DNA from: Schmidtea polychroa
Taxonomy: Eukaryota
Direction: 5' to 3'
DNA: 60,000 bases
NCBI GenBank assembly: GCA_044892525.1
Contig: CM097885.1
Location: forward strand, 22,880,001-22,940,000
Made by a program: the position numbers and the translations under genes. Position 1 is the first letter of the stretch, and the number at the start of each line of letters is the position of its first letter. Under the pieces are notes generated by a model. The model saw only the letters and a program-made list of their open reading frames with translations, was not told the DNA's origin and searched no databases. Below are positions 18,199 to 19,901 of the stretch, one piece after another.

Positions 18199-19901
18199 AG
18201 TAGATGGATTGGGCACCGCTGGCACAGGGCACCGCTAGCACAGTACCCCCCCTCCCCCCCCTCCCCCCCGTCGGTAAGATTTTCAAAAATATTCTAAGTC
18301 TAAAAGTACATTTTTTTTTCAAGGTCAAATTTAAACAAAGACATATGACTCATCAAGGTCATTGAAACAAAGACCATGAGTCATCCTATGACTCATAAAA
18401 TTTTTCAAGGTCATTTAAACAAAGACCATGACTCATCCGATGACTCATCAAGGTCATTTTCAAGGTCATATGACTCATAATATGACTCATCAAGGTCAAA
18501 AAAATTTTCTCGAGGTCATTTAAACAAAGACCATGACTCATCAAGGTCATTTTCAAGGTCATATGACTCATGGTATGACTCATCAAGGTCATTTTCAAGG
18601 TCGTATGACTCATAGTATGACTCATTTGACCTTGAAAATTTTTTCAAGGTCATATGACTCATAATATGACTCATCAAGGGCATTTTCAAGGTCATATGAC
18701 TCATAGTATGACTCATTTGACCTTGAAAATTTTTTTTCAAGGTCATATGACTCATCCTATGCCTCATCAAGGTCATTTTCAAGGTCATATGACTCATAGT
18801 ATGACTCATTTGACCTTGAGAAATTTTTTCAAGGTCATATGACTCATCTTATGACTCATCAAGGTCATTCTCAAGGTCATATGACTCATCCGATGACTCA
18901 TCAAAATTTTCAAGGTCATTTTCAAGGTCATCTGAGTCATCCTATGACTCATCAAGGTCATTTTCAAGGTCACATGACTCATCCAAGGTCATTCCCAAGG
19001 TCATATGAGTCATCGCGATGACTCATCAAGGTCATATTATTATTTTTAAAAAATATTATTATTTTTATTATTATTTTTAAAAATATTATTATTTTATTTT
19101 TAATTTTTTCAAAGTTCCCGCCAACGAAAATTAATAATCGATAGCTCATTTTAAAGCTCAATCCAAGACCTTTCGAATGAGCCATATATCTTATTATTAT
19201 TATTATTATTATTATTATTATTATTATTATTATTATTATTATTATTATTATTATTATTATTATTATTATTATTATTATTATTATTATTATTATTATTATT
19301 ATTATTATTATTATTATTATTATTATTATTATTATTATTATTATTATTAGTATTAATCTATATACACCGAGTCTATATACTCTGAGTCTATCCGACAAAA
19401 TATTTTGTCCCCCTATGGGTAATGCTCACAAGGGTACTGGTCACGCTCAACAAATCAACAAAACATACATTTATTTAAACAATAAAATAATGTAAAATTA
19501 ACAAAGGTAAACTAAATATTGATGCACTTCTATTCGCAGCATTATTGTTAGAAATTGGTAACGTTGAATTGATTTTCAGATATTCTATTGATCCTTTGAT
19601 TGTTTGAATTTCTCTTAATAATAATTCAATCTTTTTTAACAAATAATCATGCTTCTTATCAATAATCTTCATATTCTTTTTATTTTCAGTAATAGAGTTA
19701 TTGAAAACCTCAATATGATCAATCAATTTAATTTTTATATTTTGTATATATTCAAATGTTAGTTCATAACTGTTTTCTAAATTCTCCAATCTTTGAGATA
19801 TTCTTTTTCCTGGATGCTTTGACCATTTTGGTTTGTCGAGAATATATAAAATATCCATCAACTTGGCTGTATTCGGACAAACACATATTGATTTATTAAA
19901 A
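18199..19901 (+). repeat. Left terminal inverted repeat (1703 bp)
   Basis: Reverse complement of 39885-41438; differs mainly in ATT tract length, one extra ~51 bp repeat block and homopolymer lengths. Confidence 0.95.
18318..19035. promoter_or_regulatory. Subterminal array of ATGACTCAT (AP-1/bZIP) and TCAAGGTCA (NR5A/FTZ-F1/ERR) motifs; putative enhancer
   Basis: Manual count of about 28 TGA[C/G]TCA and about 27 YCAAGGTCA in ~715 bp, plus several AACAAAG; mirrored in the right TIR. Regulatory function is inferred. Confidence 0.6.

Follow-up and report, generated by a model that had tools for sequence, protein, structure and literature searches.

Tandem clusters of AP-1 and NR5-type motifs at the ends of a planarian Maverick/Polinton: a candidate host-factor enhancer

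What could a 0.7-kb array of motifs that match the binding sites of host transcription factors be doing at the end of a mobile element? The window studied here (the whole stretch of DNA analysed, 60,000 nucleotides of Schmidtea polychroa contig CM097885.1, positions 22,880,001 to 22,940,000) holds such an array. An earlier note on this DNA had read it as a dense enhancer of AP-1 and NR5A/ERR sites, coupled to stress or wound signalling and to a possibly gonadal cell type. The array lies within one Maverick/Polinton, identified by its AGTAG ends, target-site duplication (TSD), terminal inverted repeats (TIRs) and gene set (Table 1).

Table 1. Features of the element and its ends, in window coordinates.
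Feature	Coordinates	Strand	Remarks
Target-site duplication CATATT, 6 bp, left copy	18193..18198	+	From sequence; right copy 41439-41444
Whole Maverick/Polinton, 23.2 kb, AGTAG termini	18199..41438	.	Nested ~4.5 kb insertion inside
Left terminal inverted repeat, ~1.7 kb	18199..19901	+	
Terminal 16-mer direct repeat and C-tract	18211..18270	+	Presumed origin and integrase end
Left array	18318..19035	+	28 TGASTCA, 24 forward and 3 inverted YCAAGGTCA, 4 AACAAAG
Founder cassette: receptor site, AACAAAG, AP-1/receptor fusion (composite, ATGACTCATCAAGGTCA), AACAAAG	18319..18372	+	Single copy in subfamily B
E2F-like TTCCCGC site	19115..19121	+	Present in family E too
166-aa ORF, hydrophobic ends, coiled-coil-like middle	19475..19975	-	Weak Pfam matches only
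Bcl-2-like gene, apparently two exons	20081..20600	+	PF00452 E 0.01, below cut-off; splicing predicted from sequence
Promoter-like cluster preceding 136-aa ORF: AACAAAG, CCAAT, one AP-1 site, TATA-like word	21648..21691	-	
TBP-like gene	22451..22888	-	PF00352 E 1.6e-15
A32-type packaging ATPase	22988..23614	+	PF04665 E 3.6e-7, above cut-off
rve integrase, chromodomain-like tail	24228..25334	+	PF00665 E 1.2e-5; PF00385 E 0.0014
Predicted double jelly-roll major capsid protein, 407 aa	26690..27913	+	Predicted structure, pLDDT 90.4
Adenain-type protease	27858..28325	+	PF00770 E 4.6e-6, above cut-off
Family B DNA polymerase-like ORF, 1331 aa	35343..39338	+	
Right terminal inverted repeat	39885..41438	-	
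Right array	40650..41317 (about)	-	26 TGASTCA, 22 + 2 receptor sites, 4 AACAAAG

The 407-residue protein is predicted to be a double jelly-roll capsid. A Foldseek search with the model gave an iridovirus capsid (E 1.3e-17), and the other top matches were the capsids of PBCV-1, Sputnik and mavirus. The PF00665 match of the integrase scored 25.9 bits against a cut-off of 32.6, and the reading frame is broken by a microsatellite that is probably intronic. The 1331-residue frame resembles a family B polymerase in motifs recognised by eye; Pfam, PHROG and the PDB gave no polymerase match. A frame of 351 residues is a candidate single jelly-roll minor capsid by position only. Like those of 136, 137, 177 and 121 residues, it matched no Pfam or PHROG family, and two of these five frames queried in Atlas gave no usable match. 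The 166-residue frame is directed toward the array and has its 3' part inside the TIR. The Bcl-2-like gene has one short apparent intron, and its exon 2 encodes what we take to be a BH2-like motif, as well as a hydrophobic tail at the C terminus. Four contig-level runs of unrecorded type across 19400–21750, which are uninformative on level and strand, gave no joint at this putative intron among the entries listed. A small multi-exon gene (28823–29510) has repeated acidic-hydrophobic motifs, which we take to be like SUMO-interaction motifs, and its promoter contains AACAAAG, TGACTAA, CCAAT and TATA-like words.

The nested insertion (window about 30035–34510) is missing in the copy at L031/L032. 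It holds a 27–35-bp tandem repeat and a 575-residue ORF of no family. The right flank (41522–41734) resembles a decayed transposase, presumably of piggyBac type by its motifs. Outside the element, inverted repeats are found to either side (17581–18032 and 47000–47774), and the element seems to sit within older DNA transposons. The closest host gene recognised, which ends ~5.3 kb from the left array, is an slc18a-1-like transporter (11412–12866) that is 87% identical to Schmidtea mediterranea slc18a-1.

The composition of the array is as the earlier note had described it. About 28 AP-1-type motifs, about 27 copies of YCAAGGTCA and AACAAAG had been claimed; between 18300 and 19040 we counted 28, 27 and 4. 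The exact AP-1 9-mers there are ATGACTCAT (25 copies) and ATGAGTCAT (2 copies), and 515 of the 718 bases of the array (72%) fall within motifs. The claimed AP-1 pairs 3 bases apart are present, with four common spacer alleles (AGT, CCT, CCG and AAT), and so is the array at the other end of the element, where the right TIR has 26 AP-1 and 24 receptor sites. A motif scan of 1000 dinucleotide shuffles gave means of 0.34 (TGASTCA) and 0.065 (YCAAGGTCA) and maxima of 3 and 2, a control that excludes random composition only, as any tandem repeat would beat it. The factor names (AP-1, NR5, and E2F for the TTCCCGC motif) are given by match to the standard consensus sequences. Each array starts 120 bases from its terminus. 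The nearest element promoter is ~1 kb from the array, both flanking genes are directed toward the arrays, and there is no receptor site between the TIRs of this element.

The array is an amplified cassette of ~55 bp, which is present in single copy in the sister subfamily B described below. The family of this element (A) is large. Its exact terminus occurs 1583 times in the genome, corresponding to roughly 800 elements, and a capsid query found at least 102 genomic places, with 102 of 102 scored at 99–100% identity. The array is hypervariable, ranging from 347 to 1059 bp among the top-ranked copies. In the present element the right array is the left one minus one block: a 51-base block and 6 substitutions separate the two, as against 2 substitutions in the unique part of the TIR. 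When 20 ends were sampled stepwise along the list of termini, 16 retained at least 10 of each motif (medians 18 and 20), and most sites were gone in the other 4.

Several rearranged derivatives were observed. A tandem cluster of ~2.3 kb TIR units (G000:C1:242.72–242.78 Mb, L018–L025) has an identical flank and a full array in each unit, that is, a satellite built from an element end. Fold-back derivatives of family A with inverted arms of 5–6 kb carry arrays at both ends, as does a gene-less derivative of 10 kb; these lie at G000:C1:24.98 Mb, 29.60 Mb and 7.60 Mb (L173, L178 and L169).

Conservation of motifs and spacers was compared in 47 arrays, among which at least 6 pairs are both ends of one element. 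Seven tandem duplicates (L019–L025), two duplicate entries for loci already in the set, one truncated end, one end-less locus and 12 subfamily B ends were left out. Alleles were read from 509 AP-1 pairs and 354 receptor pairs, and were called common when present in at least 60% of the 47 arrays. Common alternative alleles numbered 0 of 33 at the 14 core positions and 5 of 15 in the spacers (Fisher p 0.0018, indicative only, as allele types are not independent). The earlier claim that motifs are kept while spacers vary thus stands, with one recurrent core-breaking position as an exception. Within the motifs or next to them, only three changes are common: C to G at the AP-1 centre, T to C at receptor position -1 and one at a flank base. 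Of these, the AP-1 centre and position -1 changes are permitted by the consensus. The change at the AP-1 centre traces to three inherited contexts and perfects a hairpin, and is therefore weak evidence alone. Between receptor pairs, two positions of the spacer match the cores in constancy. Variation is 0.2–1.1% at most core positions and 2.0% at the last receptor base, near the 0.2–0.6% of unique element DNA. This level of core variation fits neutral decay after insertion, with no sign in these sequences of host selection retaining the sites.

The exception is the A of TGAC. It is altered at AP-1 position 4 in 28 of 1018 sites (2.8%, 14 contexts) and at receptor position 7 in 43 of 708 sites (6.1%, 23 contexts), with changes to all three other bases. 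The excess tracks the strand of the TGAC half, and AAAGAC is affected as well (11/190). Tolerance of NR5 receptors at position 7 was considered as a cause and rejected, because the corresponding A of AP-1 sites, and that of AAAGAC, shows the excess as well. Nor is GAC a hot spot in general: in unique element DNA 0 of 274 bases were changed at TGAC and 6 of 1005 at GAC. The rate is 3–6% in arrays and ~0.5% elsewhere. Seven of the variants (18 per side in six element pairs) are common to both ends, and hence not all can be assembly errors. The hot-spot rate showed no correlation with copy divergence (p 0.63 and 0.18). The excess looks mutational. It is confined to the arrays, and its source may be modification or damage acting locally, or occupancy by a protein. 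Many of these changes break motifs, which is evidence against strict constraint.

Four relatives (B, C, D and E) were found through the capsid gene, with the motifs disregarded. Subfamily B has a capsid protein nearly identical to that of A and ~94% identity in the TIR-adjacent genes. It has 315 ends, and all 12 ends read contain one AP-1 site, 2–5 receptor sites and one 17-bp composite. In the B TIR the cassette is followed by a different repeat of ~200 bp with an inverted terminal word; these repeats (L051–L062) hold 1–9 inverted copies of the terminal 16-mer. The combination of near-identical capsid proteins with different ends suggests an exchange of end modules between A and B. Family D (289 ends) is ~78–80% identical to A in the nucleotides of the gene block, and its TIR can be aligned to that of A only in patches of 20–50 bases. 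The D TIR nevertheless has 13 AP-1 sites, 6 receptor sites (4 of them as direct overlaps) and the same 17-bp composite, together with a CRE, an E-box that is palindromic, and repeats of forkhead-like type. In family E there are 2 AP-1 sites but no receptor site; both motifs are absent from family C. A block of ~90 bases beside an ATT microsatellite (19357–19450) is conserved in TIR types A, B, D and E and had no Rfam match.

Genome-wide there are 12,802 occurrences of the 17-bp composite and 0 of its control. Seventeen composite sites away from the listed A, B and D termini were read, and they belong to decayed A ends or further terminus types. They were chosen for the composite, which is thus present by construction; the amplification of the receptor 9-mer in them is not. 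The 9-mer has been amplified separately by lineage, with periods of 6, 12, 13, 17–19, 29 and 38 bases, the 6-base period corresponding to direct overlaps; copy numbers reach 45. Across 12 lineages and 93 distinct contexts, 31 of which belong to a single lineage, the G, T, C and A that follow TCAAG are each kept at 84–90%, and the flanks at no more than 70%. Viral contigs gave no related loci with either the capsid query or the 17-bp composite, three short metagenome contigs contained no element ends, and none of three gene-less palindromic elements checked had family A ends or a receptor array.

Are suitable factors encoded by the host? A PDB search identified a Jun-like (L183) and a Fos-like (L181) bZIP exon, and L184 and L186 are similar by eye. 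Two receptors, L100 and L109, have the NR5 ESCKG P-box. The best PDB matches of L100 are SF-1 and NR5A2, and its C-terminal extension is present. Among the zf-C4 exons read (54 loci, 53 matches; split exons may be missed) there was no ERR-like first finger. Of the proposed NR5A/ERR assignment, the NR5 part is accordingly retained and the ERR part is not. Other fingers in the host are presumably COUP-, TLL-, HNF4- and NR4A-like by their signatures, and such receptors could bind the direct overlaps. In the available text of PMC8673669, a flatworm FTZ-F1 binds to elements of the SF-1 type in EMSA and shows expression in every cell type. The gonadal cell type suggested earlier is unsupported on this account.

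The perfect NR5 site TCAAGGTCA has 97,461 exact occurrences in the genome, 32-fold more than the reversed control (3,031). Of the first 100 sites listed, 86 are within Polinton ends, a share that may not be general, as the initial 0.7 Mb of contig 1 holds all 100. We considered twelve single sites as borne by a palindromic element and rejected this; the element lacks the site, the match is in its flank, and the twelve were counted as non-Polinton.

Our best explanation, held with moderate confidence, is that the array is a tandemly amplified AP-1/NR5 motif cluster and likely an enhancer, which would bind host Jun/Fos and NR5 proteins, open the element ends and raise transcription. Several observations argue for it: the conservation of cores over spacers, the recurrence of both motifs in family D in a layout that cannot be aligned, the amplification of the receptor 9-mer with different periods in different lineages, and the single AP-1 site and AACAAAG that stand with CCAAT and TATA-like words before an internal gene. 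To these may be added the Jun-like, Fos-like and NR5 DNA-binding domains of the host, the EMSA result above from the available text of PMC8673669, and the larger number of ends in A than in B and D, although such copy-number differences may reflect age. Against it stand the recurrent motif-breaking changes at the A of TGAC and the layout, with the nearest promoter ~1 kb off, flanking genes that run toward the arrays and no receptor sites between the TIRs. Spread has occurred in subfamily B with a single cassette and in family C with neither motif, so the array is not required for it. Nor does amplification need selection, as TIRs also amplify other units, such as the ~200 bp unit in B.

Part of this layout is what would be expected if the same host factors had their main job at the origin, loading a terminal-protein polymerase or keeping the ends nucleosome-free for replication or integration. 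Host factors act in adenovirus ITRs, and AP-1 acts for polyomavirus origins. The position close to both termini and far from a promoter, the restriction of receptor sites to the TIRs, the outward direction of the neighbouring genes and the arrays retained at both ends of the gene-less 10-kb derivative and two fold-back derivatives all point this way. This reading, absent from the earlier note, is the main rival; we nevertheless consider it unlikely. B and C have spread without an array, the three gene-less palindromic elements do without a receptor array, retention in derivatives can be passive, and the motifs are present at an internal promoter too. Less likely still is that one cassette is functional and that its multimer arose by slippage, in TIRs prone to repeats, and varies in number neutrally. 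The variable length, unequal between the two ends of one element, would then be easily understood, as would the amplification of an unrelated unit in B and the loss of most sites in 4 of the 20 sampled ends. The motifs themselves are suited to slippage or template switching: the receptor 9-mer is 1.5 x TCAAGG, and the AP-1 9-mer is nearly palindromic. Under neutral amplification, however, changes in the cores would be expected to spread no less freely than those in the spacers, which they did not, and the same 9-mer with different spacers has been amplified in several lineages.

Two further explanations do without host factors. DNA transposons commonly carry repeated subterminal sites for a protein of their own. 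The motifs might similarly be sites for an integrase, a terminal protein, a packaging factor or another protein of the element, with a coincidental match to host consensus sequences, and several ORFs (the five family-less frames above) could supply such a protein. This we regard as improbable: the 17 element ORFs scanned have no bZIP or nuclear-receptor domain (small spliced genes were outside the scan), A and B differ ~20-fold in site number in spite of their similar genes, and family D adds textbook host motifs (CRE, E-box, forkhead). The array could instead have been selected as secondary structure in a displaced single strand, the AP-1 pairs forming hairpins with 3-base loops. The array DNA does fold at -122 kcal/mol (z -12.4 against 20 shuffles), the variable spacer sits at the would-be loop, and the G-centred AP-1 site is nearly always the 5' member of its pair, which perfects the stem (117 G-C, 1 C-G). 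The G-C cases, however, come from only three inherited contexts. The C-C mismatch is retained in 375 of 495 pairs, with no compensatory change elsewhere. Moreover, 24 of 27 receptor sites share one orientation and are unable to pair mutually, and receptor-only arrays exist. In Rfam the array gave sub-threshold hairpin matches only. Selection for structure is very improbable.

If the array is an enhancer for host factors, Jun/Fos and an NR5 receptor of the FTZ-F1/SF-1 type would bind it, and their binding would open the element ends and raise transcription of the element genes. Slippage or recombination would keep altering the number of sites, and selection in the replicating lineage would remove core changes. 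More sites would give a stronger or more stress-responsive activation. Control by wounding or JNK would be a further step, taken from general AP-1 biology. In the available text of PMC8532177, Polintons of S. mediterranea rank with the classes that piRNAs target most, and acquire active marks in the course of differentiation; an enhancer here would therefore probably act against silencing. As the available text of PMC10558129 cautions, planarian motifs are not experimentally verified, and the presence of a motif does not show regulation.

The same observations allow a wider picture, which we offer as doubtful. A radiation of Polintons may tune its activation by amplifying AP-1/NR5 sites at the ends, with most of the ~97,000 perfect NR5 sites borne by elements. 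The arrays would then act as a switch responsive to wounding, by which proviral copies in their hundreds are woken in regeneration, and as a sink or enhancer set large enough to reshape the NR5/AP-1 programmes of the host. Were this so, the comparison of A with B (near-identical capsid protein, ~55 versus 4 sites) would be a natural experiment on Polinton switching. The array bears on what triggers gene expression, and perhaps particle formation, in animal Mavericks; Maverick particles have not been observed according to the available text of PMC8097293. The array names Jun/Fos and NR5 as candidate host switches in a planarian amenable to routine RNAi, wounding and ATAC, and subfamily B (one cassette) and family C (none) are built-in controls. 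As element-borne sites far outnumber background NR5 sites, they matter for motif-enrichment and chromatin data in this genome.

How does the array compare with known systems? Landais and co-workers are said to have described, in 2006, homologous regions (hrs) of baculoviruses as conserved clusters of host bZIP sites with enhancer and origin function. The likeness is that repeated viral DNA carries clusters of host bZIP sites. The hrs are dispersed palindromes bound by the viral IE1 protein, whereas the present sites are terminal, belong to an integrating element and are paired with a nuclear-receptor site. The element itself resembles the Mavericks of PMC8097293, as far as the available text goes, in its 6-bp TSD, long TIRs, AG/AGT-type ends, size, integrase, ATPase, protease, double jelly-roll capsid and polymerase-like gene. 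It differs in the length of its TIR (1.7 kb versus 46–1447 bp in vertebrate Mavericks), in its apparent introns and in its TBP-like and Bcl-2-like genes, and no transcription-factor arrays in TIRs are described in that text. Our survey of the published literature, with Repbase, subscription journals and supplements outside its scope, yielded no description of arrays of this kind in the TIRs of Polintons. That the terminal repeats of viruses hold sites for host factors is an old principle; the array in a Polinton TIR is apparently undescribed. Repeats can supply many host-factor sites, as with the SmFTZ-F1 site within a repeated sequence of Schistosoma mansoni (available text of PMC8673669); unlike in that case, the supply of TCAAGGTCA sites here is massive and comes largely from the ends of virus-like elements. 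The available text of PMC11946086 reports host-factor sites in adenovirus ITRs and multiple AP-1, CREB and other sites in the major immediate-early enhancer of CMV. The present array is similar in placing host-factor sites in the terminal repeats of a linear DNA, as in adenovirus, and in combining many sites, as in the CMV enhancer. It is unlike both in having ~55 sites of two kinds within 0.7 kb, in variable number and in ~800 inherited genomic copies.
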